Source of the DNA: a virus
Virus record (IMG/VR): IMGVR_UViG_3300017917_000601
Location: 12,935 to 76,934 of that record
DNA length: 64,000 bases
Strand: one strand, 5' to 3'
Shown: piece after piece, positions 13,915 through 32,644 of the stretch
Numbering within the stretch: the stretch's first letter is position 1
Layout of the letters: each line of letters begins with the position of its first letter
The notes under the pieces: model-generated
Database searches by the model: none
Told to the model about the DNA's origin: nothing
The model's input: only the letters and a program-made list of their open reading frames with translations
Program-made: the position numbers and the translations under genes

Positions 13915-13922
13915 TATAAATA
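13915..13922 (+). promoter_or_regulatory. T4-type late promoter TATAAATA
   Basis: Exact T4 late consensus, 5 nt before ATG 13928. Confidence 0.75.
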
Positions 13923-14949: not shown

Positions 14950-15210
14950 TTATAGTTCAGTTGGCTGTGGCTTGGCCGCTTTTTCAGCTAAAGTTTCAAT
15001 ATCTGCATTTAACACAATATCTTCTTTAGACCCAGAAATCGTTTCGCCGGCTGCTAGCTTGCGTTGTATTTCCTGGGCAACTATTTCTTCAATTGCAATT
15101 CGACATCTTTCATGTACTGCATTATCGATCCAATCTTGAGCTGAGAGAGCAACTGCATGAAGAGCTTTATCTTCTGCATCGCTTAGTACTACTGTATATG
15201 TTTTTGACAT
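14950..15210 (-). CDS. Small fibre-associated hypothetical protein (possible chaperone)
   Basis: 86-aa helical ORF with AGGAG RBS, immediately after the C1q triplet. Confidence 0.65.
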   Translation of the reverse strand: MSKTYTVVLSDAEDKALHAVALSAQDWIDNAVHERCRIAIEEIVAQEIQRKLAAGETISGSKEDIVLNADIETLAEKAAKPQPTEL

Positions 15211-15225
15211 TTTTTAATCTCCTGT

Positions 15226-15753
15226 TTAAGCTAGAAGCCAGCCAGAAAAATGGCCTAGGCCTCCACCCATGTAATAATCGCTTGAATAAGTTGTTTGGTC
15301 TCTGTAAATATATAGCTGAACGTAGTCATTAGCGGCCAAGGTTAAGATGCACGATGCTACCATCTGTTGGTGATAGTTTGTACCAATAGAATAACAATAA
15401 GCATTGCCCCTACCAGTTACTAAAGATCCGTTTTTAATCCAACCCCATTCACCGTTTGTAACTGAGCTAGCACTATTCGACCTGTATAAAACGCTTGCCT
15501 GAAACTCATATATACCTGCAATTGGCGCAGTAAATCTACCGTTTGAAGTATTATATCTAGAATTATTGTTAGATATTGTTGCTGAAAAGGTTACAGCTCC
15601 AATTGATTGGCGTATGCCGCCTTCATAAGCCCACGCCGCCGGTACTTGATTAAAATTTACGTATCCGTTAGCATCTTGAGTTATTCCAGTCGACCCTGTA
15701 TTAGCAATCGTTGTTGCTCCTGTTATTGTTGTATTTCCAAGAACTACTGGCAT
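15226..15753 (-). CDS. C1q-domain protein, paralogue 3
   Basis: YNTSNGRFTAPIAGIYEF, L.L.ANDYV, HFSGWLL. Confidence 0.85.
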   Translation of the reverse strand: MPVVLGNTTITGATTIANTGSTGITQDANGYVNFNQVPAAWAYEGGIRQSIGAVTFSATISNNNSRYNTSNGRFTAPIAGIYEFQASVLYRSNSASSVTNGEWGWIKNGSLVTGRGNAYCYSIGTNYHQQMVASCILTLAANDYVQLYIYRDQTTYSSDYYMGGGLGHFSGWLLA

Positions 15754-15757
15754 AGTA

Positions 15758-16291
15758 TTATCCTATTAATTTTCCTTGAAAGTGCCCGAGGCCGCCTCCA
15801 AAATAATAATCAGTGCTTGCTGATATTACGTTACACCGCATATCAACTACGTCGCCTGCCGAAAGACTTAACATGACTGTTGAGAAACAAGGAGTGTGAC
15901 CGTTTGACGACGGATTTACTACATAAACAAATCCTCTAGTACCAATGTTAGATCCATTTAGGGCAAAGTACCATTCACCGTTACCGGTGACGCCGTTTGA
16001 TCTAAACAATAAACTTCCGCAAAACTCATAGATACCCCCTGCGCCAGCGGGAACTGTAAATCTTCCTGTTGATGTATTATATCCGCTACCTCTGTTAATG
16101 TTTACGTTGTTAAAAGGAATTGCAGAGTTTGTAGTTGTTGTTGATGAACCATCATCGCTTCTATAAGCGTAAAAACACACCCTACTAGGGAATGTAACAT
16201 AGCCACTGCCGTCAACATTTAGTCCGGCAGAGCTTGTGCCAGCGATTGCCGAAACTCCTGTAATACTCGATGCTCCAAGTGTAATTGACAT
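15758..16291 (-). CDS. C1q-domain protein, paralogue 2
   Basis: F.AY, IPFNNV.IN.G..YNTSTGRFTVP...GIYEF, LSAGDVV, HFQGKLIG. Confidence 0.85.
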   Translation of the reverse strand: MSITLGASSITGVSAIAGTSSAGLNVDGSGYVTFPSRVCFYAYRSDDGSSTTTTNSAIPFNNVNINRGSGYNTSTGRFTVPAGAGGIYEFCGSLLFRSNGVTGNGEWYFALNGSNIGTRGFVYVVNPSSNGHTPCFSTVMLSLSAGDVVDMRCNVISASTDYYFGGGLGHFQGKLIG

Positions 16292-16294
16292 GTG

Positions 16295-16819
16295 TTATCC
16301 TAATAATTTTCCAGAAAAATGTCCAAGGTTTTCACCATAATAAAAGTCAGTACCAGAAGAAATAGTTATCAAACAAACACTTACATAATCGCCTGCGTTT
16401 AGGTAACGTATTTGCGTCCAATGTGTAGGTATATGTTCACTTGAATAAACTACGTGTGTGTAAGCTAGTCTGCCTTGGTTAACATTATTTACGGCAAAGC
16501 CAACTTCGCCATACCCGCCGCTACTAGAATGGCGTTGCAATACATGAGCATGAAATTGATAGTAGCCTGCTATAGGTGCAGTAAATCTACCAGTGCTAGT
16601 ACTATAATGATTACCCCGATTGACTCTAGTATTGCTAAAAACTAACGCTGTAGTTGTCGTAGTAGTTGATACACCGCCTGAGGAGTACGCATAAAAGCAA
16701 GGAATATATGGTAATCTAGCATACCCAGAACTGTCGATAGTTATTCCAGCATTGCCGGTCCCGGCAATACTAGTTGCACCAGATATAGTATCTGTAGATC
16801 CGTTAATTAACACCGGCAT
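16295..16819 (-). CDS. C1q-domain protein, paralogue 1
   Basis: FYAY, LVFSNT.VN.GNHYSTSTGRFTAPIAGYYQF, YLNAGDYVSV, HFSGKLLG. Confidence 0.85.
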   Translation of the reverse strand: MPVLINGSTDTISGATSIAGTGNAGITIDSSGYARLPYIPCFYAYSSGGVSTTTTTTALVFSNTRVNRGNHYSTSTGRFTAPIAGYYQFHAHVLQRHSSSGGYGEVGFAVNNVNQGRLAYTHVVYSSEHIPTHWTQIRYLNAGDYVSVCLITISSGTDFYYGENLGHFSGKLLG

Positions 16820-19800
16820 TAGATTTTTCCTTTAAGATCATCAATTTGCTTTTGTTGTTCTTTAATTGCTTCAACTAGTAAAGCAACGGTGTTTGCATAC
16901 GCAAGAGATTTAATACCATTTTCATCTGTTACTACTAATTCAGGAATAATTGCTTCAACTTCTTGAGCAATCATACCCATTTCTCTATTACCGTTTGAAA
17001 TACGATTATACATTACACCTCGAAGAGCAAGTGCTTTTTCTAAAGCGTTTTCTATAGTAGAAACGTTTGTTTTTAGTGTCGCATCAGAGTTTGATGTTAT
17101 TGTTCCGGTGGCTGAGATGTTACCTTCAACAGTTATACCTGCCTTAAATGTAGCAACTCTAGTATTAGCAACTTCTAACCACGAGTTCATGCTTCCGTTA
17201 GTAGTGGCTGTTCTAGCAAAATACAATATACCGTTGCCAGTGGCCATGCCCATTGATGCATAAGTTGTAGTATCAGCTTTAATGCTAATACACGCTGTAC
17301 TTAAAGACCACCCCGAAGTTCCATCTGACGCTTGGTGACCTAAAAATGCTCCGTTTGCGGCATCTTTAAGAACCACTGATTGGTTAGCTGTTGCATAATA
17401 AGCACCGCCACTTACTAGGTTAGTAACAGATAAAGATCCTAAAGTGCCAACACTGGTTAGACTTGAACTTGTAACACCACTTCCTAAAGCAGTAGCACTT
17501 AAGACCGTTGTGTTATTAATTCTAAATGTTTTTCCAGTAGCAATACTTAGATCGTTATTAATTGTAGTTGTACCAGTTCCTGCGCCAATGCTAATTGCAG
17601 TGCCGGCGCCAAATGCGTTAACTGTTGTAGCGTTAGTATTAACAATATTAACAGTAGTTGAGCTAGAATTAACAGTTAAGTCGCCACCTCTAAATTCTAA
17701 GTCGCCTGCAACGACAGCATTGTTATTAATTGTAGTTGTACCAGTTCCTGCACCAATTGCAACGGCTGTAGCCGCACCACCAATATTTAAACCAGTGGCA
17801 TTAGTGTTAAACAGCGGCACTGTACCAGTTTGTGAAGTAGTAATGCCGCCGCTTCCATTGGCGGCTACAGTTCCGCTAACTGTTAAACTGGTCAATGTGC
17901 CAACACTTGTTAGGCTCGATGCCGTAACGCCGCTTCCTAATGTTGTAGCATTAAGAACACTAGTTCCGTCGACTAGATAACCAAAGGTACTAGCAACTCC
18001 AATGTTTTGATTTGCTGTAAATGCGTTAGTTGCATCGACCCAGTTAAAAGTTTTATTACCGTCGCCTGATTCAACAGTAATACCTGATCCGTCGGCGGCA
18101 GCATCGTTTATTGCTCCGCTACCTAACACAATATTTTTGTCGTCAACAGTTAATGTTGTTGAGTTAATAGTTGTTGTAGTTCCGTCGACTTGCAAATTAC
18201 CTTTAATTTGTACAGTTCCAGTATCATTACCTTCAGCCGCTGGATCAAGAATCAATGTGCTTGGGCCAATAACTTTATTAACATAAATTTTGTCATAAAG
18301 AATACTTGAAGTACCTAGTGTATAGAGATTGGTAACACTAGGAACAATGTTAGAACTAACTTGTGTAAAATAAGTTTTAACAGCTTGCTCAGTTGGAACT
18401 GCTAAATTACTGTTACCGCTTAAAGTTGCATCTGCAGAGAACTCGTTAATTTGTTCACCTAACTGAGCACCAATACTACCAAGTCTTAAACTTGTAAGAC
18501 CAGATAAGTCGAACGCACTAGCATTAAGTGTTGCTCTACCAGTAGCTTGGTCAACTTTAAAGTATTCGCCAACTCTGAAGTTACCGTCTTGGTCAGTACT
18601 TACATAGAATACACGAGCTGGGAACAGTTCAATAACTTCATTGCCTTGGCTAGCCGCCTGGAAAGGAATTCCTGGATAGTTAGTAGTTGCTACGCCACCT
18701 GTACCAATACTTAAGAAGTCGTGCCCAGTTAATCGAATATTGGAATAATCATATCTAATTTTGACACTAGTTCCGTCAACGCTTGGGATTGACTTTTCAC
18801 CAGCTAGTACAATAGTTGTAACACTGCTACTGTTAGTCCAGCCGCTTACGCTTTGAATAACGTACGTGTTTGTATCACCGGTTGTAAATTCAATACTGCC
18901 GCCTGGACGAGGTTCAACTACAAATCCAGTAGCAATTAAAATAAATCCAGACTGGCCGGTAACTCCGCCTGTGGCAATTGCCGCAGATACTCCAAGACCG
19001 TTGCTAATAGTTTCACCAGCTGTAAATGGGCCACCGCTAGTTACTTTATAGTATATTTTTCTAGCCGAAGGTTGAACATTAGTAACAACCGCAACTGCTC
19101 CACTAGATTGCCCTGTAATGGTGTTGCCGACACTAAAACTTCCACCAGTTAAGCTGATTGCAGTGTATTCTAACATGTCTCCGTATAGAGTACCGTTTAA
19201 GGTTGTTTCAGTTAAGTTTGTACCAGATGCTAATACTCCGTATGTTCCGTAACTGTTGTTACCGTTAAGTGCGCGAATCTTTCCGCCTCTTGTTGCCGCA
19301 TAACCTGTATGACAGAAATATGTAAAGCAACTAACAATTTCGCTCTTGGCATTGTCTTTAACCCAGAATCCAACACCGCCGTCTAATATAACAGTGTATC
19401 CATGGAATACCATAGATTTTAATCCAGTTGCATGTACGCTTCCGTCTAATAATGCCCCAACAGATCCGGCAGATTTAGCACTACATTCAATAACGTATGG
19501 CGACTTTGTAGCGATCGGTGTTAACGGATCAAATGCAACATAAACTCCGCCGATAGTAGACTGGTCAATGTTTTGATCGTTTGGTGCGTAAGGCACATAA
19601 CCAGTTAGTCCTTCAAACAACATCTTATTAAGAAGGGCACCATCGCCTAGTCTCCACATTGTTTGTTGCTCATATCCTGGTGCGGCTTTAACTGTTGTAG
19701 TTCTTTGGTTGTCTCCTACAACAGCAACAAAACTAGGAACTGTAATAGGTAATTGTTCTAGATAAACACCTGATGCAACATAAATTGTTGCAGGTCCAAC

Positions 19801-20223
19801 TGCTTGAGTACAGGCATGTTTAATTGTAGAGAATGCAGTTCCCCAAGACAATCCACTGTTAGCATCACTGCCTGTAGGACTTACATAATAAATTTTTGTA
19901 TTGACACCGTTGTCTTGCCAGGTTGGTACTCCGCTAACTACGGTTAACACCTGTCCAGATGACCCAATGGGTAGTCTAGCATCTTGACTAGTTTCTCTAT
20001 AAATTATGTCGCCCTTGGTGGTAGTTACTGTACTACCTTCTACCATTAGTTCAAACTTTGAAGAATTTGTAGCCCAACTAGTTGCACTAGTATGGCCTAC
20101 TATACAAGCATAGCTTGATCCGTTATAGCGAACTACATCGTCTTTGACGTAGGTTTGCCCAAGAGCCCATGCTCCTCTCCAGTTAAATTTAATTTTACCT
20201 AAATTAATTGATGTAATTGCCAT
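16819..20223 (-). CDS. Tail fibre/spike with beta-helix region and C-terminal S74-type self-cleaving chaperone
   Basis: N-terminal LGKIKFNWRGAW; YYVSP.GSD.N.G beta-helix start; SSLTSVGTL repeats; C-terminal NSDATLK...GMIAQEVE...LLVEAIKE. Confidence 0.88.
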   Translation of the reverse strand: MAITSINLGKIKFNWRGAWALGQTYVKDDVVRYNGSSYACIVGHTSATSWATNSSKFELMVEGSTVTTTKGDIIYRETSQDARLPIGSSGQVLTVVSGVPTWQDNGVNTKIYYVSPTGSDANSGLSWGTAFSTIKHACTQAVGPATIYVASGVYLEQLPITVPSFVAVVGDNQRTTTVKAAPGYEQQTMWRLGDGALLNKMLFEGLTGYVPYAPNDQNIDQSTIGGVYVAFDPLTPIATKSPYVIECSAKSAGSVGALLDGSVHATGLKSMVFHGYTVILDGGVGFWVKDNAKSEIVSCFTYFCHTGYAATRGGKIRALNGNNSYGTYGVLASGTNLTETTLNGTLYGDMLEYTAISLTGGSFSVGNTITGQSSGAVAVVTNVQPSARKIYYKVTSGGPFTAGETISNGLGVSAAIATGGVTGQSGFILIATGFVVEPRPGGSIEFTTGDTNTYVIQSVSGWTNSSSVTTIVLAGEKSIPSVDGTSVKIRYDYSNIRLTGHDFLSIGTGGVATTNYPGIPFQAASQGNEVIELFPARVFYVSTDQDGNFRVGEYFKVDQATGRATLNASAFDLSGLTSLRLGSIGAQLGEQINEFSADATLSGNSNLAVPTEQAVKTYFTQVSSNIVPSVTNLYTLGTSSILYDKIYVNKVIGPSTLILDPAAEGNDTGTVQIKGNLQVDGTTTTINSTTLTVDDKNIVLGSGAINDAAADGSGITVESGDGNKTFNWVDATNAFTANQNIGVASTFGYLVDGTSVLNATTLGSGVTASSLTSVGTLTSLTVSGTVAANGSGGITTSQTGTVPLFNTNATGLNIGGAATAVAIGAGTGTTTINNNAVVAGDLEFRGGDLTVNSSSTTVNIVNTNATTVNAFGAGTAISIGAGTGTTTINNDLSIATGKTFRINNTTVLSATALGSGVTSSSLTSVGTLGSLSVTNLVSGGAYYATANQSVVLKDAANGAFLGHQASDGTSGWSLSTACISIKADTTTYASMGMATGNGILYFARTATTNGSMNSWLEVANTRVATFKAGITVEGNISATGTITSNSDATLKTNVSTIENALEKALALRGVMYNRISNGNREMGMIAQEVEAIIPELVVTDENGIKSLAYANTVALLVEAIKEQQKQIDDLKGKI

Positions 20224-20240
20224 AGTGTTATTCCGTTATT

Positions 20241-21026
20241 TTAACTAAATGTAACAATTAAGTTACCGCTAGCATCCATTGAATACGAGTAATTTGATGT
20301 ACCTATATCCGTATCTTCATATAGGTCATTTCCAGTTGCATCTTGTAAAGACACTGTTGAATCTTGTGTATAAGAGTAAATTAAGTCGCCGCTTGAATTA
20401 ACACTAAATCCGTGGAACATAGTGTCATATGAAATTTCTCCAGCTACGTCAACTGCAAACCCCGAACCTATTATTATTCCACCTAATACAGATGTTGTTG
20501 CTGGCACTAACGGGTTAGTGCTAATTACTCCGTTAGCATCAACTGATATACCGGTTCCAACAATAACACCGCCTAGAGTATTAGTAGTTGCTTTTGCAAG
20601 TGCAGTTGTAATACTAATATCAGCAGTACCATCAAATGCAACACCGTTAATGCTTCTTGCTGTTTGTAATTTTGTTGCTGTGGCGGCGTTACCAACAATA
20701 GTATTTGTAACAGTTAAATTAGTTAATGTTCCAACGCTTGTTAGACTTGAACTAACAACATTAGAGGCTAGTGTAGTTCCAGTAAGAGTACTCGATGCCG
20801 CGGTAACAGTAATGTTAGCGGTTCCGTCAAATGCAACGCCGTTGATGTTCCTTGACGTCTGTAATTTAGTAGCACTTGCCGCGTTGCCAGAAAGCACGTA
20901 AGTAGCAACATTAGACATGTTACTTTTCTTACTGACAGGAATTTGACCACTGTTGTCTACAACAGGAATCGTAACTGTTCCGTCTATCGTTGTTAACGGG
21001 GTAAGTTCGGAGATCTTAATTGGCAT
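20241..21026 (-). CDS. Short fibre/adaptor protein
   Basis: N-terminal IKISEL; two ATKLQT.R.INGVAFDGTA.I repeats; AT...LGG.I.G.G repeats. Confidence 0.75.
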   Translation of the reverse strand: MPIKISELTPLTTIDGTVTIPVVDNSGQIPVSKKSNMSNVATYVLSGNAASATKLQTSRNINGVAFDGTANITVTAASSTLTGTTLASNVVSSSLTSVGTLTNLTVTNTIVGNAATATKLQTARSINGVAFDGTADISITTALAKATTNTLGGVIVGTGISVDANGVISTNPLVPATTSVLGGIIIGSGFAVDVAGEISYDTMFHGFSVNSSGDLIYSYTQDSTVSLQDATGNDLYEDTDIGTSNYSYSMDASGNLIVTFS

Positions 21027-21032
21027 GTTTTA

Positions 21033-21824
21033 TTAACCGATAACAAACGTTAACGGTGTTCCTCCTACTACATTTGTTTCTAATTCTTTATCTAATTCTT
21101 TTTGCTCTTCTTTGCCTGCGGCTAGAAGTGCTGTTCCGTTGAGTTGAATAGGACTTTGCGGGCCAGCAATACTACCAAATTTACTACGTGCTTCACCTAG
21201 CATTACTTTGCAAGTTGCTAGACTATAATCATATAACCACTGTTTGATATAAACATCCTGTAGTAGTACAAAGTCTGGTCTAAAGTTGTGTGTTCTTAAC
21301 AAAACTTGTTCGCCTTGTGCAAACGGTCTTTGTAAAATTGTTAAAATATGATTAGTTGGATTCCATTTAAATTCAATAAATGCTCCAAACATTTTTCCAA
21401 CAAGTTTTTGATATCCTGCAAATAATTCATAAGTTGCAAGACCACCTAGCATACTTCCTGTTAGTAAGTAGGTATTTGTATAAGCTAAGTTAAAAGGTTC
21501 AAATAATGTGCCGCCAGCACCGGTACCACTACGTGATCCAATAGCACGTCTAAAAATTTGACGAACCTCAATAACTTCGTTGGGCAATCTGTACTCATTT
21601 ACATCCTGCTGTAATTCTAAGAACATATAGCTTTCTTCAACAGAAGCACTGCTTTTTTGTCTTAATCTGCTAAGTGCGCGATCTAACGCAAGCTCGTAGT
21701 GTTTGGGATCTAATTCTACTTCGACCATGCCGTCGCCCAGCATAGTTTTGCAGTAATCAAACACTTTGTTGCGCTCTAGAGTGCTGTTAGATTGCCCCGG
21801 ATCTTGAGGGTATGTATCGGCCAT
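21033..21824 (-). CDS. 13: Neck protein gp13-like
   Basis: DYC..MLG..MVEVELD, W..DY.LA..K..LG..RSKF, final P..F.IG. Confidence 0.8.
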   Translation of the reverse strand: MADTYPQDPGQSNSTLERNKVFDYCKTMLGDGMVEVELDPKHYELALDRALSRLRQKSSASVEESYMFLELQQDVNEYRLPNEVIEVRQIFRRAIGSRSGTGAGGTLFEPFNLAYTNTYLLTGSMLGGLATYELFAGYQKLVGKMFGAFIEFKWNPTNHILTILQRPFAQGEQVLLRTHNFRPDFVLLQDVYIKQWLYDYSLATCKVMLGEARSKFGSIAGPQSPIQLNGTALLAAGKEEQKELDKELETNVVGGTPLTFVIG

Positions 21825-21840
21825 TATTAGTTCTCCTAGT

Positions 21841-21862
21841 ATATTTATCTAGCGATAAATAT
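21841..21862. promoter_or_regulatory. Back-to-back late promoter cores forming an inverted repeat (gp13 / gp14)
   Basis: ATATTTATC-tagc-GATAAATAT gives GATAAATA on both strands. Confidence 0.7.
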
Positions 21863-21866
21863 CATT

Positions 21867-23297
21867 ATGCCACGATTATCTTTATATAAGCCCGAGCGAG
21901 GGCAAGATTATTCCTTTATAGACCGTCAGATTTCTGAAGCATTTCAGATGGGCGGCACAGATATCTACCTGCACAAATATATAGGTACAGGCGAAGGTGC
22001 TGATTTTAAAGACGTAACACAGATACAAGATCTTGTGTTTTTAGAAAATCGTGACAGAAAATACGATCAAGAAATCTACAGAATTCGAGGAATTTACAAC
22101 GTACAAAACATTGACTTTAACCTAAGTCAGTTTGGTCTGTTTATCGACAATGACACGCTCTATATGACCGTGCATATTAATGATTTTATCAAATTTATTG
22201 GTCGTAAACCACTCAGCGGCGATGTTATGGAGTTGCCACATTTACGTGACGAGTTTGCACTTAACGGAGCAGATGTTAGCTTACCTAGATACTATGTTAT
22301 TGAAGATGTGGGCCGTGCTAGCGAAGGGTTTAGTGCTACGTGGTATCCTCATCTATACAGATTAAAACTTAAGAAAATTATGGATAGCCAGCAGTTTGCT
22401 GATATCCTTAACAAGCCAGCTACAGATTCTATGGGTAATCCTAGTGCTAGTGGTGATACACTATTAGACATCTTAAGCACGTATCAAAAGGAACTTGCTG
22501 TTAACAATGCTGTTATTGCTGAAGCTGATTTAGACACTAATACAGCACATCCGTACGATAAAGATGATCCTAACAGTCCCCCTGTAGGAAAGAGCGGTTA
22601 TGAAACAAGACAATTCTATACTTTAGCTGTAAACGAGCAAGGTAAGACTGTTTTAAATACCGCTGACAATGGTAGTTTGCTTGCATCTGGAACTATATTA
22701 TCTACTGAAAGTGTAGCTAGGCCATTAAAGACTGGTTATACAGGATACTTAGTCGGAGATGGGTTTCCGGACAACGGGCACGAGTTTGGTCACGGTATTC
22801 AATTTCCGGAGCTTGCTGGAGAAGGCGATTATTTCTTAAGAACAGATTTCCTGCCAAATCGTCTTTTTAGATTTAAAGAAAATCGCTGGATAAGACTCGA
22901 AGACAACGTAAGAATGGAACTATCTAATACCAGCACAAGACAAACACTTAAGACTAGCTTTATTAATAATACTGCATATCTATACGATCAAGCAGTTGCA
23001 ATTGATTATGTTACAATTACAGCTAATGCATCTGTAATAGATACTGATGTAAATTATCCAGTGTCTGCTCTGTACCTAGTGTTTAAATTTGAAACTACTG
23101 AAATAGCATTTACTGTTGCCAGCCATACAGGATTGTTAACTAACAATGCTGGAAAAGTAAGAATAAATCTTCCAATTGTTAACACCGTGCAACAAGTTAT
23201 ACCTTACTCAGGTACTTGGAAAGTCAGTTTCTGCAATGGCAGAGTTGAACAGCGACAAGCTCTTAGCAAGGCTTTAAGACCAAAGGCAGATCTATAA
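21867..23297 (+). CDS. 14: Neck protein gp14-like (extended)
   Basis: E...MGGTDIY, D..F.ENRDRKY, LSQFGLF, GD..ELPH; lies between gp13 and gp15. Confidence 0.7.
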   Translation: MPRLSLYKPERGQDYSFIDRQISEAFQMGGTDIYLHKYIGTGEGADFKDVTQIQDLVFLENRDRKYDQEIYRIRGIYNVQNIDFNLSQFGLFIDNDTLYMTVHINDFIKFIGRKPLSGDVMELPHLRDEFALNGADVSLPRYYVIEDVGRASEGFSATWYPHLYRLKLKKIMDSQQFADILNKPATDSMGNPSASGDTLLDILSTYQKELAVNNAVIAEADLDTNTAHPYDKDDPNSPPVGKSGYETRQFYTLAVNEQGKTVLNTADNGSLLASGTILSTESVARPLKTGYTGYLVGDGFPDNGHEFGHGIQFPELAGEGDYFLRTDFLPNRLFRFKENRWIRLEDNVRMELSNTSTRQTLKTSFINNTAYLYDQAVAIDYVTITANASVIDTDVNYPVSALYLVFKFETTEIAFTVASHTGLLTNNAGKVRINLPIVNTVQQVIPYSGTWKVSFCNGRVEQRQALSKALRPKADL

Positions 23298-24763: not shown

Positions 24764-25194
24764 CTGATAAGATTGTATGTAGCGGAGCATTGTTCTACGC
24801 TAAATCTACACGAAGATTCTTACTGTTACAAAAAGCCAACGGCAAACATCAAGGAACTTGGGGCCTAGTAGGCGGCACAAACCTACAAAATGAAAATCCT
24901 TGGCAAGGTCTACAGCGAGAAATTGCCGAGGAAATTGGTGTTACTCCTGCAATCATTAAAACTATTCCTCTAGAAACGTTTGTTAGCAACGACAAAGTTT
25001 TTAATTTTCACACCTACTTGTGTGTTATTGAGGATGAGTTTATTCCAAAATTAAGCCCAGAACATTGTGCCTGGGCTTGGTCAACTATTGATTGGGCTCC
25101 TAAACCGTTACACCAGGGTTTAAGAAATAGTTTTTCTAGTAAGATTATAAGAGCTAAATTACAGACAGTATTTGATATTGTTGACTTAATTTAA
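24745..25194 (+). CDS. Nudix hydrolase
   Basis: Nudix box GGTNLQNENPWQGLQREIAEEIG. Confidence 0.9.
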   Translation: METRTVTDKIVCSGALFYAKSTRRFLLLQKANGKHQGTWGLVGGTNLQNENPWQGLQREIAEEIGVTPAIIKTIPLETFVSNDKVFNFHTYLCVIEDEFIPKLSPEHCAWAWSTIDWAPKPLHQGLRNSFSSKIIRAKLQTVFDIVDLI

Positions 25195-25397
25195 GCCTCA
25201 TCTAACTTATAGAATGTGTATCTTTCAATATTTTGATCTGGGTGTTTCGCTATAGACAATTTTCTTCCAGAGCATTTAAAAGAATATTCAGATAACTCCG
25301 CATCTGGCATGCTTGCAGTATCAAATCCTAGATCTATTCTCCAAGAAAATCTCGGATATTTAGTGTGTATTTCTGTAACTTCTTCGTCAGTAAACAT
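25191..25397 (-). CDS. Small hypothetical protein
   Basis: 68-aa ORF with GAGGA RBS and GATAAATA upstream. Confidence 0.6.
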   Translation of the reverse strand: MFTDEEVTEIHTKYPRFSWRIDLGFDTASMPDAELSEYSFKCSGRKLSIAKHPDQNIERYTFYKLDEA

Positions 25398-25496
25398 AAG
25401 TTATTCCTCTCTGATTGATTATTTATCGACGACTATCGCCAAATGATTTGTTTTATTTGCTAGAATAAGATAAAATAAGCTACTTAGAGGTAAAAC

Positions 25497-26282
25497 ATGT
25501 TTTTTAAAAAATCTACAATATACCTAGACTGTTATACAACCCAAACACATGTTTATGATCTATTCAAAATTGAATCGGCCAAAAAACACGTTCCTGATTG
25601 GTTTAGGGAGTTGCCTAACACGTTTGACGACCCTCGTTCGATAATTCCAATACCTACTGCAAAAACTTGCTCAGGTATTGCTAGTTTTTTTAGAACTGGA
25701 TTTATTATTCCATTATGGTCTGATGCTAAACTAGGTTATGCTCCTATACCCAACGGTTACACTACTACTATTCAACCAGTTACACAGTTCTCTGATCAAC
25801 TAACAAAGTGTCAGATACACGAACAAAAACAAATTGGCAAGGATTTTATGCCTGATAATCTCTATGCTCATTTTAAAATATTTTCCCCTTGGGTTTTTGA
25901 GTGTAGTGAAAATATCGACTGGCTGTGGTTGCAACCAACATATAACTTTAAAGAACCAGATAGCATAACAGTCTTACCTGGTGTACTAGACTTTAAGTAT
26001 AATTCAAATGTTTTTATTAATTTTAGCATAAGAAAAACCAGCCCGTCTAATTCACCTAACTTACTAAGTTTAGAAGCAGGACAACCGTTAGTTCATTTAG
26101 TTCCAATAACTGATAAAGAAGTTATTGTTAGAAATCACATTGTAACTGTTGACCAATGGAATAAGATTTCTCAAAAAAATAACAGAGTATTCTTTTCTAA
26201 TAATCACAACAAAAAACGAAAACTATTGCAGGAGCAAGAAGTTTTAAAAAGCAAGTGCCCTTTTGGATTTAAAAAATTATGA
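25497..26282 (+). CDS. Conserved-looking phage hypothetical protein (first gene of oxygenase cluster)
   Basis: 261-aa ORF with GAGG RBS; PDWF, T.K.C.G, GFIIPLWSD, K..SPW, PG..DF, AGQPL. Confidence 0.7.
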   Translation: MFFKKSTIYLDCYTTQTHVYDLFKIESAKKHVPDWFRELPNTFDDPRSIIPIPTAKTCSGIASFFRTGFIIPLWSDAKLGYAPIPNGYTTTIQPVTQFSDQLTKCQIHEQKQIGKDFMPDNLYAHFKIFSPWVFECSENIDWLWLQPTYNFKEPDSITVLPGVLDFKYNSNVFINFSIRKTSPSNSPNLLSLEAGQPLVHLVPITDKEVIVRNHIVTVDQWNKISQKNNRVFFSNNHNKKRKLLQEQEVLKSKCPFGFKKL

Positions 26283-26824
26283 TAGCAGACCACGCATTTA
26301 GACCCAACGTTTATACACCTGAAGAGTGTGCAGAAATATGCCGACTCATGGAGGCAAACATCAATGTAGCGATACGAGATTTACCAAGCAAAGACTCAGT
26401 TAAAACTTCTAAAGTCGGCATGGTAGAATTTGGAAAAGTCAAAGATAAATTAGAAAAATTCAAAAATATATGCCTCGACGGTAATAAACATTTATTTGGT
26501 TTTGATCTTTTTCAGTACACAGACCTAGAATATTTGATGTATAATGTCTACGACGTCGGTGGGGAATACAGCTGGCACATTGATGGTAGCCGTGGAGAAA
26601 TTAAAGATATTAAACTAACTGCACTACTTAATGTAAGTACTGAACCATATGAAGGCGGAGAATTAGAAGTATTCTTTAGTTCTAAACCAGAACCCATTAC
26701 CCAATTTAGAGCGCCAGGATCATTTTTTATTTTCCCTAGCTGGATGCCACATCGGGTTACTCCAGTAACTAGTGGCCGTAGAACAACCATTACCTTATTT
26801 TTACAAGGCCCAAATTTTAGATAA
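26279..26824 (+). CDS. 2OG-Fe(II) oxygenase (prolyl-hydroxylase-like)
   Basis: YSWHID (HxD), YEGGEL, FPSWMPHRVTPVTSGRR. Confidence 0.9.
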   Translation: MIADHAFRPNVYTPEECAEICRLMEANINVAIRDLPSKDSVKTSKVGMVEFGKVKDKLEKFKNICLDGNKHLFGFDLFQYTDLEYLMYNVYDVGGEYSWHIDGSRGEIKDIKLTALLNVSTEPYEGGELEVFFSSKPEPITQFRAPGSFFIFPSWMPHRVTPVTSGRRTTITLFLQGPNFR

Positions 26825-26834
26825 AAGGATCAAT

Positions 26835-27428
26835 ATGAATATTCACAGCCTATTTCCACAACCAGTTGCTCAAGTTAATCTTAATAGAAAATTAACTGAA
26901 GAAGAGTACAACTGCATAATGACTCAAGAGTTAAGGCCAGATTTTGTAAATGCTATTAGTAATGATTTTAAAGTATTGGATCGTCCAGAACTAAAACAAA
27001 TCAAAGCGTTTTGTGAGTACTATACAAACATTTTCTTTGAAAAAGTATTTGATCCCATGACAGAGATAAAACCACAGTTAACTCTTAGTTGGGTAAACTA
27101 TAATAAAAAAGGTGATTGGTGTAACGAACACAATCATTCAAATAGCGTTATTAGTGGTGTATTTTATGTACAGACCTACGACAATGATGCTATTATGTTT
27201 CATAATGAACCACAGTTTAGACAGCTATCTTGGTTAAATCGAGAAGACAATCCATGGAACGCTGAAATGGCAATGTTTCCTGCAATCGAAGGCGACCTAT
27301 TGTTGTTCAAATCTGATATGAAGCATCGAGTAGTACCAGTGCAACACGATAAAGTGCGTGTGAGTTTAGCGTTTAATGCATGGATCAGCGGTGATATTGG
27401 TGACGACTTGAGTGCTTTAAAACTCTAA
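26835..27428 (+). CDS. Putative 2OG-Fe(II) oxygenase (TIGR02466-like)
   Basis: LFP.PV, SWVN, HNHSNSVISGVFY, GDLLLF.S...H.V, RVSLAFN; ATG 26835 after AAGGA. Confidence 0.85.
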   Translation: MNIHSLFPQPVAQVNLNRKLTEEEYNCIMTQELRPDFVNAISNDFKVLDRPELKQIKAFCEYYTNIFFEKVFDPMTEIKPQLTLSWVNYNKKGDWCNEHNHSNSVISGVFYVQTYDNDAIMFHNEPQFRQLSWLNREDNPWNAEMAMFPAIEGDLLLFKSDMKHRVVPVQHDKVRVSLAFNAWISGDIGDDLSALKL

Positions 27429-27437
27429 GGATCTATT

Positions 27438-28013
27438 ATGCAGATTTATGAAAATATATTACCTAATGCGCTACTAAGAAAAGTACAAGACGTTGTATTA
27501 CACGACGGAACACCGTGGCAGTTTACAACTACTACTAACCAATCTGCTACTGATAAGTTATACGGATATAGTTGGGGGCATATTGCTTTGGATCAAAACG
27601 GCCCAAAAACTGCGGCAGCTGACGTATTACACACTGCGATTTTAATTGCTTTAGAAAACGCTGAACAACCTGTCAAAGAAATTTATAGAATACGATTAGG
27701 TCTACTAACTGTTACACACGAACGTAGAGTAAACGATCCTCATATAGATATAGATGTTCCGCATAAAACTGGTTTAATCTATCTCAACGAAGCTGACGGC
27801 CCGACTATATTTTATGAAAACAAATATAACACTAGCAGTAGGCTAAAAGGCATGCAATATTTAGAAAAGGTAATAGGTGATAAGTTAAAAATTGCAGAAG
27901 AAGTTGATCCAGTAGTCAATCGAATGGTCATATTTGATGGATTAACTTATCACTCTAGCACTACGCCTACTACTGTTCCAAGGCGTGTTGTGTTAAACTT
28001 TAACTTTAATTAA
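27438..28013 (+). CDS. Putative 2OG-Fe(II) oxygenase
   Basis: PHID (HxD), IYLN..DG.T, NR..IFDG..YHSS, R.VLNFN. Confidence 0.85.
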   Translation: MQIYENILPNALLRKVQDVVLHDGTPWQFTTTTNQSATDKLYGYSWGHIALDQNGPKTAAADVLHTAILIALENAEQPVKEIYRIRLGLLTVTHERRVNDPHIDIDVPHKTGLIYLNEADGPTIFYENKYNTSSRLKGMQYLEKVIGDKLKIAEEVDPVVNRMVIFDGLTYHSSTTPTTVPRRVVLNFNFN

Positions 28014-28417
28014 TGACTATGTCCGTGTATTTTGCAAAAAGGCTCTTCTTCAGATTTTGGCCTTAGTAACGGTAATAGTTTTATATCTAACGGCATTACA
28101 GATCTTTCGCCTGCGCTGGCGTAATACCAAACACCGTTTTCCATAAGATAATAATCTTCACAGAAGAACTTCTCAAAATGTCTCATGAAATCAGCAAAGT
28201 TAAAAAATGTCAGTGCAGGCGTAGCTACATCTGCTGGTTGATTTGCTGATTCTGTAATATATTTTTGAGAACCTTGATCAATCAAAGTTTTTACACGAGC
28301 TTGATCTTTCCAGTGTGATTGTAAGCAAGGTGCAAGATTGACGTAATCTCCAGATTCGCACATTATTGCCTTAATAATTTTTCCTTCTAATATTGCGATA
28401 GCTGATTTGGTCTCCAT
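28010..28417 (-). CDS. Hypothetical protein
   Basis: 135-aa ORF with AGGA RBS and CTAAGTA upstream. Confidence 0.65.
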   Translation of the reverse strand: METKSAIAILEGKIIKAIMCESGDYVNLAPCLQSHWKDQARVKTLIDQGSQKYITESANQPADVATPALTFFNFADFMRHFEKFFCEDYYLMENGVWYYASAGERSVMPLDIKLLPLLRPKSEEEPFCKIHGHSH

Positions 28418-28488
28418 AATGTTCCTTTGTGGTTATCTATTACTTAGTAGATTCTAAAATACTTTATTTTTCTTTAGAAAAACTGCTG

Positions 28489-28529
28489 TATAAATAGCAT
28501 TGTACTGCCTTCCCAAATAAAGATAAATA
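28489..28529 (+). promoter_or_regulatory. Tandem late promoter cores for the Cys-Cys-Cys cassette
   Basis: TATAAATA 28489-28496 and GATAAATA 28522-28529. Confidence 0.65.
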
Positions 28530-28557
28530 CTAGTAGATTATTGGCAGAGGAAAAAAC

Positions 28558-29094
28558 ATGGCATCATTGCAAAGTTCCACAGTTAGCGGAAACATTACAG
28601 CTAGCACCGGTGTTTATAAAGCTGGAGGCAACCAAACCCCATGGTATCGTATTCAGCATTGTGCTGATGCTACTAGCACAAGCATTTGTAATCCAACTTA
28701 TTCATGCGGTTGGTTACATATTAGAACACCGTTACCTGCTACAAACGCGGCTAGCGGTATTGGTTGGAATCCAAACATTGTAGAAGTCGTTGGTTTTCAT
28801 ACATACAGCGGTGAAGTTACTAGCGATTTTAAAGCTATTGTGAATAATAGCGGATACAGTGATAATGCTTGGTACGGGAATCAAATTCGAGCAAATCAAA
28901 GTAACTATAGTAGTATGGTTGTTTATCAGTCATCTAACAACTACGGAGGTCTCAGACGTGTATGCATTGCTGTTCCAAAGATAGGTTGTTGTTGCCAGGG
29001 GTGGATTTGGATACGCTGGTGGAATAACAGTGGCTATCGTGCTGACTTTGCTTGGGGAGTCGGTGCAAATAGTTCGAGCTCCTCAATATTTTAA
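28558..29094 (+). CDS. Cys-Cys-Cys motif protein, paralogue 1 (putative fibre tip)
   Basis: LHIRTPLP, GWNP.I.EVVG.HTYSGE, WYG.Q, GCCCQGWIWIRW shared with the next two ORFs. Confidence 0.75.
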   Translation: MASLQSSTVSGNITASTGVYKAGGNQTPWYRIQHCADATSTSICNPTYSCGWLHIRTPLPATNAASGIGWNPNIVEVVGFHTYSGEVTSDFKAIVNNSGYSDNAWYGNQIRANQSNYSSMVVYQSSNNYGGLRRVCIAVPKIGCCCQGWIWIRWWNNSGYRADFAWGVGANSSSSSIF

Positions 29095-29103
29095 GGATAT
29101 AAA

Positions 29104-29628
29104 ATGGCAAGTTTACAAGGAACGACAGTTAACGGATTACTGACAATAACAGGACAGACTGTTCTTGCAGGGAATTCAAATATTAGCCCATGGGTGCAAT
29201 TAAGCCACTGTCCTACACAATACTCTGTAGCAAATAATAGATTACACGTAAGAACACCGATCCCGGGAAACGCAATGGGTTGGAATCCGTTTATTTTGGA
29301 AGTAGTTGGTTATCATACATATAGCGGTGAAGTTACAGAAGATTTTAAAGCTGTTATGAATGTTAACGGTAGTCAAGGATCTCCTACTGGGTGGTACGGT
29401 AGTCAAATTTTTTCAAATAATGGTACAAACACAGCACCGTTTGTATATCTATCCAACAGTACATACGGTGGTGAACATCGCGTATGTTTTTCAGTAAACA
29501 TGGTTAGCTGTTGTTGTACTGGAAATATTTGGGTAAGATGGTTTAATGGTTCAAGTTATTGGAATAGTTTTGCTTGGGCAACTGCTTCGTCTAGCGATAG
29601 CCAGGCTAGTCCAGTTAAGCAATTTTAA
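29104..29628 (+). CDS. Cys-Cys-Cys motif protein, paralogue 2
   Basis: LHVRTPIP, GWNPFILEVVGYHTYSGE, SCCCTGNIWVRW. Confidence 0.75.
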   Translation: MASLQGTTVNGLLTITGQTVLAGNSNISPWVQLSHCPTQYSVANNRLHVRTPIPGNAMGWNPFILEVVGYHTYSGEVTEDFKAVMNVNGSQGSPTGWYGSQIFSNNGTNTAPFVYLSNSTYGGEHRVCFSVNMVSCCCTGNIWVRWFNGSSYWNSFAWATASSSDSQASPVKQF

Positions 29629-29643
29629 AGAGATAAGTACAAC

Positions 29644-30189
29644 ATGGCAACATTTAACGTAAACACAACAATTAATGGAGACTTTACTAGTTCAACTGCT
29701 ATTTTAGACGGACAAAGTGACATGACTGAGTGGTATCAGCTCAATCATTGTGTTTGTCCAAGTAGTGACGGGACTAGTGACTGTATTGGTAACGGTAGAC
29801 CATATCTGCATGTTAGAACACCAATACCTGCAGACGAGTCTGCAGGTGTAGGTTGGGGGCCTTACATTTTAGAAGTAGTTGGATATCACAGCTACTCAGG
29901 AGAGAGATGGCACGATTTTAAAGCTATTGTAAACACAACCGGTGATGGTACAAATTCTTGGTACGGAAGCCAAGTCCGTGTTAATACTGGTAATGCTAGT
30001 TCTGAACCGTTTGTGTATAGATCTTCAAGCACTTATGGCGGATTTAGACGTATGTGTTTTGCTATTGGTAAAATTAGCTGTTGCTGTACTGGAAACCTAT
30101 GGGTTCGTATTTGGACTAACAGTGGGTTTAGAGCTAGTTTTCCATGGGCTACAGAAACTGCTAATACAAACAGCACACTAAGATTTTAA
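29644..30189 (+). CDS. Cys-Cys-Cys motif protein, paralogue 3
   Basis: LHVRTPIP, GWGPYILEVVGYHSYSGE, SCCCTGNLWVRIW. Confidence 0.75.
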   Translation: MATFNVNTTINGDFTSSTAILDGQSDMTEWYQLNHCVCPSSDGTSDCIGNGRPYLHVRTPIPADESAGVGWGPYILEVVGYHSYSGERWHDFKAIVNTTGDGTNSWYGSQVRVNTGNASSEPFVYRSSSTYGGFRRMCFAIGKISCCCTGNLWVRIWTNSGFRASFPWATETANTNSTLRF

Positions 30190-30201
30190 AGGAAAAAGAT
30201 T

Positions 30202-30600
30202 ATGTATCATTACAGATGGCAAATTGCTAGAGTTGATGGATTTCAGCAACACCCCGAGTTAACATTAGAAAATGTTATTGCTGAAGTATATTGGGAATTA
30301 GAAGTAAGAGACACAAGTGACATGAGTGTTCATTACATTCGTGCAATGACTAAACTTCCAGATCCTACACCAAACGATTTTACTGATTATATTGATTTAA
30401 ATCATACCGATATTTTATCAATGGTATGGTCAGTCGAAGGCGGTAGAGAAGCACTTGAACAGAGAGCTAAACAAGAGCTAGATGAATTAAGAAATCCTGC
30501 TACAAAGATTCAAACATTACCAAAACACTGGTTAGCAGATTGCTGTCCAGATGGTACAAATATTGATTTAGCCGGAGCAGTTAGTTCTTCCGAAGGTTAA
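30202..30600 (+). CDS. Fibre-associated hypothetical protein (possible chaperone)
   Basis: Y.W.I...L.NVI..VYW, P.P.DF..Y.DL....IL..V pattern of small proteins that follow phage fibre genes; C-terminal DCCPDG. Confidence 0.6.
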   Translation: MYHYRWQIARVDGFQQHPELTLENVIAEVYWELEVRDTSDMSVHYIRAMTKLPDPTPNDFTDYIDLNHTDILSMVWSVEGGREALEQRAKQELDELRNPATKIQTLPKHWLADCCPDGTNIDLAGAVSSSEG

Positions 30601-30602
30601 GC

Positions 30603-30830
30603 ATGAGTTTAAAAGATACAGTTACACATTTTAAAGATATCGTTGTAAAAGCTGGTCAAACACTTGACGAAGCAATTGAAGAAAATCGCAAGCAGGGAAA
30701 AATTAAATTAGACATCTGCAAACAATGCGAAAACTTTAATATGTCTACGAGATTTTGTGGAATATGTCATTGCTTTATGCCAGCAAAAACTCGAATACCA
30801 GGAATGAAATGTCCAATTGACAAGTGGTAA
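30603..30830 (+). CDS. Small Cys-rich metal-binding protein
   Basis: ICKQC...FCGICHCFMPAKTR....CPIDKW. Confidence 0.75.
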   Translation: MSLKDTVTHFKDIVVKAGQTLDEAIEENRKQGKIKLDICKQCENFNMSTRFCGICHCFMPAKTRIPGMKCPIDKW

Positions 30831-30831
30831 A

Positions 30832-30856
30832 AAAAAGGGCTCTAAGAGCCCTTTTT
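30832..30856. terminator. Bidirectional intrinsic terminator
   Basis: AAAAAGGGCTC-taa-GAGCCCTTTTT between convergent genes. Confidence 0.85.
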
Positions 30857-30868
30857 ATTCTTTCTAGT

Positions 30869-32290
30869 TTATTTTCTTAAACTATCAATTTCAGCTTTTA
30901 ATGATTTAACAGCTTCGATCAAATAAGCAGTAAGTCTGTTATAACAAACTCCATCTGGCTTACCGTCTTTTAACTGCACCAAGTTGGGTAAAACTTCGTA
31001 AACTTGTTCAGCAATAAGTCCTGCTTCGTTCTTATTATCTGAACCTGCTGTACGATCGTATGTAACACCGTTTAACATTAAAATCTTGTCTAGAGCATCC
31101 ATAATTGGGTTAACATTCTCTTTGTAAGCAATACTTGAGTTTTCAGTAATTGTTCCAGAGAATGTAGCGTTACCGTTATTAGCCAGTGTTAATGCGTTAA
31201 TACCGTTAGTTGACCAAGAGCCGCCAGATGCATTATTAGTTGCATTAACCCAAAATCTTAAAGAACCACCAGTATTAGTATTACCAGCAACGATTTCGTT
31301 GTTACCGTTATTGCCTAATTGTAGTACGTTCCAGCTTAGGCCTGCTGAATAGCTATCGCTACTGTCATATCTTGCCTTAATTGTGTTGCCGCTAGCTACA
31401 GTTAATGCGCCAGCAACACTAGTTGCACCGGTAATTGATGCTCCGCCACTTGCTACTGTTAGGCCGCCAGTGATGTTTGCACCACCAGTACTAACTGTTA
31501 ACTGACCACCAATTGTGCTTGCCGCGCCAGTAAACAAGTTTCCACTAATACCAACGCCGCCAGTGACTACTAACGTGCCAGAGGTAGAATTAGTTGCCGC
31601 GGTTCCTGCAGTAAATGTTGTTGCCGCATTAGATGTTAATGTAGTAAATGCACCAGTGCCGCGTGTGGTAGCACCAATGTTCATACCATTAATGTTACCT
31701 GCGGTTGCTGATGTAATAGTAATTGTACCAGCACCAGTTGTTGTGATACTTTGATTGTTAGTACCAGTGTCTAAGTTAACTGCACCGTTAGCGGCTAAAG
31801 TAGTAAATGCACCAGTGCCGCGTGTAGTAGCACCAATGTTCATTCTATTGATGTTACCAGCAGTTCCTGGGTTAATTGTAACAGTACCAGTTCCAGTTGG
31901 TTGGAAACTAAATGTTGCGTTTGTTCCATTAGCAGTAATATTACCTGTTACGGTTAAGTCTGAAATGTTTGCCGCGCCACCGTTTTGACTTACAATAATA
32001 TAATCAGTTCCATCAGAAGCTAGTGTAATACTAGTTCCTGTACCAACTGTTTGTGTGCTAGTTCCTGATGAGCCGTTGCCGCGAAATACACCACTCGGAG
32101 ATGATAGAGTTATATTACCGCTGGCAGCATTGAAGAAACTTTGAGACACACCGCTAATTAAAGTTGGGTTAGGAACTGTAACTGTATAACTAGTTCCTGT
32201 AAACTTTGTAAAAACACCTTCACCCGGCGTAACTTGTGTAGTTGTCGTAGTGGTCGATGCTGTTTGTAGTACGGTATTATAACGTGCCAT
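30869..32290 (-). CDS. Tail fibre with C-terminal S74-type self-cleaving chaperone
   Basis: Gly/Thr beta repeats; ENSSIAYKENV...GLIAEQV...YLIEAVKSL. Confidence 0.85.
   Translation of the reverse strand: MARYNTVLQTASTTTTTTQVTPGEGVFTKFTGTSYTVTVPNPTLISGVSQSFFNAASGNITLSSPSGVFRGNGSSGTSTQTVGTGTSITLASDGTDYIIVSQNGGAANISDLTVTGNITANGTNATFSFQPTGTGTVTINPGTAGNINRMNIGATTRGTGAFTTLAANGAVNLDTGTNNQSITTTGAGTITITSATAGNINGMNIGATTRGTGAFTTLTSNAATTFTAGTAATNSTSGTLVVTGGVGISGNLFTGAASTIGGQLTVSTGGANITGGLTVASGGASITGATSVAGALTVASGNTIKARYDSSDSYSAGLSWNVLQLGNNGNNEIVAGNTNTGGSLRFWVNATNNASGGSWSTNGINALTLANNGNATFSGTITENSSIAYKENVNPIMDALDKILMLNGVTYDRTAGSDNKNEAGLIAEQVYEVLPNLVQLKDGKPDGVCYNRLTAYLIEAVKSLKAEIDSLRK
31641..31843. repeat. 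44-bp direct repeat inside the fibre gene (31641-31684, 31800-31843; 1 mismatch)
   Basis: Encodes MNIGATTRGTGAFTT twice. Confidence 0.85.
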
Positions 32291-32311: not shown

Positions 32312-32644
32312 TTATGTAGTTGATGTTTCGATTCCGTAAACGTTAACGTTTACGCCGGCACCCGATGACGATACTAGCACATATTTTCCAGCATCTAAAA
32401 CTAGCCCTGTTCTTTCAAATACACCGTTTGGAACAATAGTTGTGCCCCATTCGATGAATTCACTTGAACCAGGTGAACTGCTTGATGTTGATAGTGCTAG
32501 TCTGATTGTCACAGACGAAGCCGATGTATTTGTAAAAGAAACGTTAAACACAGAGTAGTATCCAGCAGGTACAACATAAGCGTTTGTATATGTTGAAATG
32601 CTGCCTGATGATAACTGTGTTGTTCCTAGTCTTCCTGTTGCCAT
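32312..32644 (-). CDS. Small beta-rich virion connector-like protein
   Basis: 110 aa; similar in pattern to 49394-49732 and 59546-59860. Confidence 0.65.
   Translation of the reverse strand: MATGRLGTTQLSSGSISTYTNAYVVPAGYYSVFNVSFTNTSASSVTIRLALSTSSSSPGSSEFIEWGTTIVPNGVFERTGLVLDAGKYVLVSSSGAGVNVNVYGIETSTT

Follow-up and report, generated by a model that had tools for sequence, protein, structure and literature searches.

Two gene cassettes in a 64,000-nt stretch of viral DNA (IMG/VR record IMGVR_UViG_3300017917_000601, positions 12,935 to 76,934; hereafter the window) each place a tail-fibre gene ending in a Peptidase_S74 (S74) domain beside three small paralogous genes. On balance, we favour reading both cassettes, from their sequences, as tail-fibre tip modules of the type formed by gp37 and gp38 of phages T2 and S16. 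The CCC trio of cassette 2, whose heads carry a vicinal Cys-Cys-Cys, would likely form one three-chain tip, and the C1q-domain trio of cassette 1 may either mix or form three homotrimers. The window is part of a 76.9-kb viral contig, rated approximately 20% complete, and its source is a large uncultured T4-like aquatic phage; T4-type virion genes in the window include those for a 1163-amino-acid (aa) tail sheath, a gp15-type sheath stabiliser, and several very large fibre proteins. Neither trio was matched by DNA or protein search in cultured phages, and neither cassette is shared with them. Tail-fibre tips decide which hosts a phage infects, and to our knowledge almost every solved phage fibre tip is a homotrimer or a single adhesin.

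Cassette 2 is a conserved module

The CCC operon comprises the following features (positions are those of the window).

28558-29094, plus strand: CCC-A, 178 aa; conserved MAxLQ leader and beta-sandwich head with vicinal Cys-Cys-Cys; leader hidden Markov model (HMM) score 6.5 bits
29104-29628, plus strand: CCC-B, 174 aa; leader HMM score 11.2 bits, the best N-terminal match among the 62 open reading frames (ORFs) of the window
29644-30189, plus strand: CCC-C, 181 aa; leader HMM score 6.7 bits; AlphaFold2 (AF2) model with a mean predicted local distance difference test score (pLDDT) of 84.5
30202-30600, plus strand: putative DUF7936 helper, 132 aa; Pfam expect value (E) 1.2e-10; module-specific C-terminal MPW...CCPDG tail
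30603-30830, plus strand: DUF6171-like mini-protein, 75 aa with six Cys; Pfam 26.7 bits against a cut-off of 27; phrog_13558 E 4.9e-13
30832-30856, unstranded: hairpin terminator common to fibre 2 and the CCC operon, which converge on it

Pattern scans of IMG/VR and the JGI metagenomes, with some contigs present in both collections, yielded 32 CCC loci. Every sufficiently long locus has the same order: S74 fibre, A, B, C, DUF7936, and usually then DUF6171. The S74 fibre gene lies directly upstream of CCC-A in 20/20 loci with the upstream gene visible, often with overlapping stop and start codons, and this conserved order supports the first-pass annotation, made from the sequence of the window, in its view of S74 fibre and small paralogues as one functional unit. 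Exactly three CCC copies occur in 23 loci, every locus with fewer visible copies ends inside the array at a contig end, and the count of three holds in every complete array across approximately 15 lineages, with the A-B-C order kept. Wherever a locus extends beyond CCC-C, the next gene is DUF7936, and in most loci DUF6171 comes after it. The family itself is very small, with 31 clusters at 50% identity among 1.84 billion representatives.

The three positions are also distinct in sequence. A maximum-likelihood tree of 52 CCC proteins grouped them by position, with 3 label changes against a minimum of 2 and a shuffled mean of 24.5. Orthologues share 35-81% identity, compared with 24-52% for paralogues within a genome, the exception being one converted B-C pair at 69%; position-A orthologues were found in at least 15 loci. 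By gene order and orthology, the CCC cassette is a strictly conserved fixed module with A, B, and C as old position-specific orthologues.

The window departs from this order in one respect. Fibre 2 is convergent with the CCC operon, 39 nt beyond it, and this inversion of the fibre relative to the module was found only in the window and its nearest relative, L001. The two cassettes had been described as matching in layout, each with one small helper; they do match in the size and number of the paralogues, but fibre 2 does not lie upstream of its trio, and a single helper accompanies only the C1q trio (an 86-aa gene), the CCC trio having two (DUF7936 and DUF6171-like). Flanking inverted repeats that might mark an invertible segment around fibre 2 were not convincing.

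Fibre ends and predicted cleavage sites

The two fibres and their predicted chaperone domains are located as follows, with a slash marking the predicted cut.

16819-20223, minus strand: fibre 1, 1134 aa; N-terminal CBM_5_12 module, long repeat shaft, C-terminal S74 intramolecular chaperone
16822-17088, minus strand: predicted released chaperone domain of fibre 1, residues 1046-1134; cut predicted, from the S74 family, before Ser1046, ...GTITSN/SDATLK
30869-32290, minus strand: fibre 2, 473 aa; short MARYNT-type S74 fibre, cognate to the CCC module and inverted in this lineage
30872-31138, minus strand: predicted released chaperone domain of fibre 2, residues 385-473; cut predicted before Ser385, ...GTITEN/SSIAYK

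Both C-terminal S74 domains named in the first-pass annotation were recovered by Pfam well above the cut-off of 22 bits, at residues 1046-1097 of fibre 1 (E 2.1e-14, 54 bits) and residues 385-438 of fibre 2 (E 2.6e-10, 40.9 bits). Each begins, at the expected cleavage point, with a Ser-x4-Lys motif corresponding to the Ser-Lys dyad (SDATLK and SSIAYK). The S16 cleavage site, DLNVS/SDRRIK, aligns with these motifs, and both fibre C-termini match the S16 gp37 chain PDB 6F45_A across the cleavage site, with E values of 5e-4 for fibre 1 and 1.5e-3 for fibre 2, the latter match spanning residues 319-473. By these alignments, S16 gp37 is the closest solved relative of both fibre ends. PHROG families annotated as long tail fiber distal subunit were also matched by the window fibres. 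The fibres were thought to have no obvious head; fibre 1, however, is not domain-free, as its N-terminal CBM_5_12 module was detected at a Pfam E value of 1.8e-9.

Fibre 2 is 55% identical to the fibre of L001, which has the same layout. A 261-aa repeat protein (20241-21026, with tail-fibre PHROG matches) is encoded upstream of fibre 1, and a 110-aa protein (32312-32644; weak match to a tail-fibre PHROG, 78% identity in L001) upstream of fibre 2; these may be proximal adaptors of the two fibres.

A shared leader behind S74 fibres

A reverse search with the chaperone domain of the CCC-linked fibres recovered 80 other viral loci, none of which has CCC or C1q genes downstream of the fibre. The fibre end TE[SNA]/SSI..KEN, considered as a signature specific to CCC fibres, is refuted as such, since it marks a broad S74 subfamily whose 80 nearest members include none with CCC or C1q genes downstream. 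The genes directly after the fibres of these loci begin instead with a conserved leader of consensus MATLKNTTINDTGF.LP.GTTAQRP. An HMM built on the N-terminal MA-x-L-[KQ]-x-T-T-[IV]-x-x-x-G leader was positive for 128 of the 797 ORFs in the 80 loci, every one of these 128 being encoded on the fibre strand and downstream of the fibre. In the loci collected earlier, 45 of 46 positives were CCC proteins, and in the window the CCC trio gave the only positives. Within the CCC family, leader residues M1, A2, L4, and G12 match the fold core in conservation. From this distribution, the leader marks a general class of proteins that are encoded after an S74 fibre and carry different heads. The first-pass idea of modular, swappable tips gains support here, with one common leader carrying different heads behind S74 fibres, and with C1q and CCC heads both also found fused to fibre C-termini.

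The N-terminus and end signature of fibre 2 are those of the S74 fibres in the leader-gene loci, the MARYNT... start being common to fibre 2 and to the short S74 fibres of those loci. Fibre 2 carries the ...TE[STNA]/SS end but is inverted downstream of its module, whereas the signature fibre stands directly upstream in the 20 related CCC loci.

Among 53 distinct leader-gene arrays, sizes were 1, 2, or 3, and none had 4 genes; at least 11 of the trios have at least 500 nt of sequence beyond the third gene. Position-specific orthology was seen in several trio families (L142/L144/L145/L147; L150/L170; L162/L188/L157/L160). An h86-like gene (the helper type of cassette 1) follows one leader-gene trio and a DUF7936-like gene follows one pair. 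Prochlorococcus phage P-TIM68 has only a partial, internal leader-like stretch.

The leaders of the six small window proteins had been proposed to resemble the fibre repeats just before the cleavage site, and to dock by mimicking them. Local alignment against the last 60 fibre residues was mostly no better than that of shuffled leaders (p 0.016-0.59), the highest score was obtained with the non-cognate fibre, and scores were no better than those against other segments of the same fibres. The likeness is compositional only, and docking by mimicry of the repeats finds no support in the shuffle test.

Fold of the CCC head and fused forms

The members of the CCC trio are 49% identical and matched no Pfam family. 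AF2 predicts CCC-C with confidence (pLDDT 84.5) as a beta-sandwich of eight strands, preceded by approximately 25 disordered leader residues. Its best fold matches (Z 5-6.4) were C-terminal domains of phage tail fibres and tailspikes and a baseplate-tail interface chain of Klebsiella phage KP1; the top Foldseek match was T4 gp9, at an E value of only 0.011, and BFVD matches were mainly tail proteins. In the model, the fold bears a weak resemblance to distal domains of tailspikes and fibres. Matches of the CCC profile to PDB entries named Spike protein covered a short stretch at E 0.02-0.05 and were regarded as chance.

In a representative search, fibre-like proteins 233-1165 aa long were found to end in a fused CCC domain. 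In one of them the domain comes immediately after a long collagen Gly-X-Y helix, and a trimeric head is thereby implied. In locus L119, a single-copy fibre at least 749 aa long carries a fused CCC head, lacks an S74 domain, and precedes a DUF7936-like gene. Taken together, the fold likeness, the fused forms, and L119 indicate that the CCC domain serves as a distal fibre head compatible with trimers, and that DUF7936 travels with it.

Several further forms were recorded. One free CCC protein has a 190-aa insertion in a variable loop. Two CCC-head proteins, P0021 and P0022, begin with signal-peptide-like N-termini, and in one of them a long collagen Gly-X-Y repeat leads directly into the head; the pair may represent surface fibres of cells or prophages. 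Pattern scans for the CCC representatives P0014, P0012, P0015, and P0022 found nothing. The shaft of P0025, a 1165-aa fibre with a CCC head, is 69% identical over 449 residues to a 979-aa fibre (L036, 1023-3962) whose neighbouring fibres carry C1q heads. Judging from this shaft identity, the pair looks like head exchange on related shafts.

DUF7936 was found both after the fused CCC fibre of L119 and after a non-CCC S74 fibre in L038. In L005 (4650-12282), a second S74 fibre of 2352 aa stands just after the CCC module and has no trio, its next genes being DUF6171 and a DUF7936-like gene, in that order; both proteins may therefore be helpers of S74 fibres in general. The MPW...CCPDG tail of CCC-linked DUF7936 is missing from the sole generic DUF7936 aligned, that of L038. 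Cys residues recur in the module, as the vicinal CCC of the heads (lost from B in one clade), the tail of CCC-linked DUF7936, and the six Cys of DUF6171, and this pattern suggests bound metal or disulfide chemistry. The fold of DUF7936 was uninformative (pLDDT 76.5; best Z 5.2, to LptE, SecB-like, and secretion chaperones).

Cassette 1 carries triplicated C1q heads

The small genes of cassette 1 follow fibre 1 on the minus strand.

16295-16819, minus strand: C1q-A, 174 aa; leader of approximately 35 aa and C1q domain; Pfam C1q E 1.8e-10, 41.5 bits
15758-16291, minus strand: C1q-B, 177 aa; Pfam C1q E 2.2e-8, 34.8 bits; 47% identical to C1q-A
15226-15753, minus strand: C1q-C, 175 aa; Pfam C1q E 6.8e-11, 42.9 bits; 40% identical to C1q-A
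14950-15210, minus strand: h86, 86 aa; putative helper of C1q-headed fibre genes

All three trio members exceed the Pfam gathering cut-off of 23.7 bits for C1q (PF00386), they are 40-47% identical to one another, and the start codon of C1q-A overlaps the stop codon of fibre 1 by one base. Three paralogues of 174-181 aa thus adjoin each fibre, as the first reading of the sequence had it, and hhalign detected no homology between the C1q and CCC trios (probability 0.2), in agreement with its statement that they share no motifs.

Relatives of the C1q head in viral contigs numbered 195, of which 80 were kept. The head is common there, mostly as the C-terminal part of fibres of 230-1633 aa, behind a conserved IDSSGRVT.P.QP neck and followed by h86. 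Pfam and PHROG searches with h86 gave no match, and all of its Atlas clusters consist of hypothetical viral proteins; a C1q-head gene lies immediately upstream of 38 of 41 distinct homologues. By this gene context, h86 appears to be a dedicated companion of the C1q head and is probably an assembly factor. The three window copies resemble one another more than they resemble the two other small trios, in L050 and L085, and by these comparisons the trio is a recent lineage-specific triplication of the common unit of C1q head and helper.

Neighbouring genes

One further feature lies upstream of the CCC operon.

28489-28496, plus strand: TATAAATA, T4 late-promoter consensus, 62 nt upstream of CCC-A; weak evidence

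As a late promoter of CCC-A, this site was rejected, as the motif occurs only twice in the window, fewer times than in shuffled sequence. The other occurrence (13915-13922) is just upstream of a small HNH-endonuclease-like gene (13928-14263) that lies between the tail sheath and dNMP kinase genes. Directly upstream of the CCC operon are three genes of the 2OG-Fe(II) oxygenase family (181, 218, and 191 aa; 26279-28013), and L001 carries two more copies. Such oxygenases have been listed among the variable genes of host recognition islands in marine phages (Mizuno et al. 2014, PMC3909814).

Discussion

The cassettes are most readily compared with T-even fibre tips. In S16, cleavage of the gp37 chaperone exposes the docking surface for gp38 (PMC7917993), and gp38 is a single-chain adhesin on the trimeric tip (PMC7917993; PMC12032242). 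It is polyglycine-rich and binds as a monomer. There is thus precedent for capping a cleaved fibre with a separately encoded protein. The window cassettes resemble T2/S16 gp37-gp38 (PDB 6F45) in having a distal fibre that ends in an S74-type chaperone and a tip protein encoded directly after the fibre gene. They differ in that Pfam detected no gp38 homologue among the six small window proteins, whose heads are C1q or a new beta-sandwich and not a polyglycine sandwich; three paralogous genes stand in place of one gp38; and the additional h86, DUF7936, and DUF6171 are present. Furthermore, gp38 is monomeric, whereas the window heads belong to trimer-forming designs.

In the mechanism we propose, the S74 fibre would trimerise with the aid of its C-terminal chaperone domain, which would then cut itself off at the Ser-x4-Lys site. 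Separately encoded head proteins, in the gene position of T-even gp38, would cap the new fibre end, and h86, DUF7936, and DUF6171 would assist folding or assembly. The heads of cassette 2 would consist of the conserved N-terminal docking leader and the beta-sandwich, with CCC-A, -B, and -C each giving one chain to a single tip, either as a 1:1:1 heterotrimer or as a three-headed cap; cassette 1 would be the same design with recently triplicated C1q heads. For CCC, one chain each in a single tip is the most likely arrangement, and a 1:1:1 heterotrimer is plausible. For the C1q trio, sequence comparison supports a heterotrimer no better than three homotrimers.

Other systems resemble parts of this arrangement. 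The virophage DSLV2 has a three-gene heterotrimeric tail protein with positional orthology and evidence from co-purification (PMC12724248). Its three consecutive small paralogous tail genes (196-247 aa) are in strict order, and the CCC trio shows the same positional orthology, unlike the C1q trio, which has no position-specific orthology. The DSLV2 proteins also carry a PF07484 collar domain, for which the window trios gave no match, have no S74 fibre partner, and are modelled on the capsid and not on a fibre end; moreover, the heterotrimer is backed by co-purification there and is putative in the window. In marine phages, C1q-domain genes adjoining or near S74-bearing tail fibres have been proposed to encode host-recognition (receptor-binding) proteins (Mizuno et al. 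2014, PMC3909814). As in the window, those C1q genes lie beside S74 tail-fibre genes; they are, however, single genes in podovirus-like pelagiphage contigs, whereas the window has three minimal copies of 174-177 aa in a T4-like phage, and the 86-aa helper family is not mentioned there.

The C1q fold forms both homo- and heterotrimers. Vertebrate complement C1q (A, B, and C chains) likewise has three tandem C1q-domain genes, but the phage proteins have no collagen stalk, and the phage trio is a recent lineage-specific triplication having no conserved A, B, and C orthologues.

The first-pass annotation had proposed that each trio forms a 1:1:1 heterotrimer, or alternative homotrimers, and had named a survey of whether such paralogues come in threes as a check. 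For CCC, where the number was always three, a heterotrimer is favoured by the fixed copy number, by orthology that follows position, and by the upper limit of three genes in leader-gene arrays. The C1q copy number, in contrast, varies freely among relatives, with approximately 56 single, 13 double, and 6 triple arrays, the very outcome that the annotation had named as refuting its proposal. The earlier observation is partly confirmed and its interpretation partly supported.

Several findings weigh against mixed three-chain tips. In the C1q family, beyond the varying array sizes, no positional orthology was found across relatives, the trio had no close relatives at E 1e-10 or better among 5.8 billion proteins, and none of its members matched the leader HMM. 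In the CCC family, the fold matches of the head are weak (Z at most 6.4), and CCC-B has been partly replaced or converted in some lineages, being C-like in L094 and nearer to A in L110, L112, and L114; three copies are retained in all four. Fused CCC and C1q fibres are single genes, and their heads can therefore work as homotrimers. Many leader-gene heads contain the glycine-rich domain PF21722, and this, with the monomeric gp38 of S16, makes alternative single adhesins possible. Some leader-gene trios differ greatly in length (287, 652, and 342 aa) and are a poor fit to a compact heterotrimeric head; those of L162, L188, L157, and L160, with conserved but very unequal sizes (about 287, 650, and 345 aa), hint at a cap with three heads whose co-assembly is confined to the N-terminal modules. 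A CCC heterotrimer is accordingly stated with caution because of the single-gene fused forms, the unequal trios elsewhere, and the gp38 precedent.

These points feed the strongest rival explanation, in which the three paralogues are separate homotrimeric or monomeric gp38-like tips that compete for one fibre end, giving a virion with mixed tips that recognises several receptors. Single-gene fused forms of both heads make homotrimers viable, C1q copy number ranges between 1 and 3, leader-gene arrays commonly have 1 or 2 genes, some trios are of unequal length, and S16 gp38 is a single-chain adhesin on a trimeric tip (PMC7917993; PMC12032242). A repertoire of tips should nevertheless gain and lose copies, whereas CCC genes number three in every complete array with their order kept, the count remains three even where a C-like copy has replaced B (L094), and no array among the 53 reaches four. 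We consider separate tips rather doubtful, though they deserve serious attention.

It is improbable that the small proteins are virion parts located away from the S74 fibre end, such as baseplate or whisker-type knobs or side branches of giant fibres, linked to the fibre genes only by a late fibre-gene cluster. Fibre 2 and the CCC trio are transcribed apart in the window, a point that also counts against a shared tip; in other phages, small C1q genes that stand alone usually have no S74 fibre next to them; and the window encodes several other very large fibre proteins. Against this stand the S74 fibre directly preceding the first CCC gene in every locus where it is visible, often with overlapping codons, the restriction of the leader to genes downstream of S74 fibres, and the fused forms, which put the heads at fibre C-termini.

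That the trios are non-structural fibre assembly chaperones like T4 gp38 or gp57A, missing from virions, is very improbable: they do occupy the gp38 gene position, and T4 gp38 is a chaperone and not an adhesin (PMC3157838), but C1q and CCC domains occur as covalent C-terminal fibre heads, one after a collagen helix, which indicates a structural role, and separate small helpers (h86, DUF7936) already accompany fused and free heads.

The preferred reading of the cassettes as fibre-tip modules can be extended, tentatively, to a general rule: a universal docking leader in aquatic phages may mount up to three polypeptides on each S74-processed fibre end, the chain number of the trimer setting the ceiling, with CCC, and perhaps C1q, forming a true A:B:C receptor-binding tip. 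We regard this extension, which draws on the leader-array counts, as possible and hold it with reserve. Capping of the gp37-gp38 kind and three-gene heterotrimeric fibres were known already; the CCC head family and the docking leader are previously undescribed.

The CCC module consists of six genes, namely one S74 fibre, three positional paralogues, and two small Cys-bearing proteins, and together with the rule of one to three genes per leader array it makes mixed three-chain tips directly testable. If the extended reading is true, the leader would be an exchange point for head swapping in uncultured aquatic phages, and receptor-binding proteins would become easier to predict in metagenomes, where such genes are now annotated as hypothetical. 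It would also represent a widespread way to break the three-fold symmetry of the fibre and combine binding surfaces.

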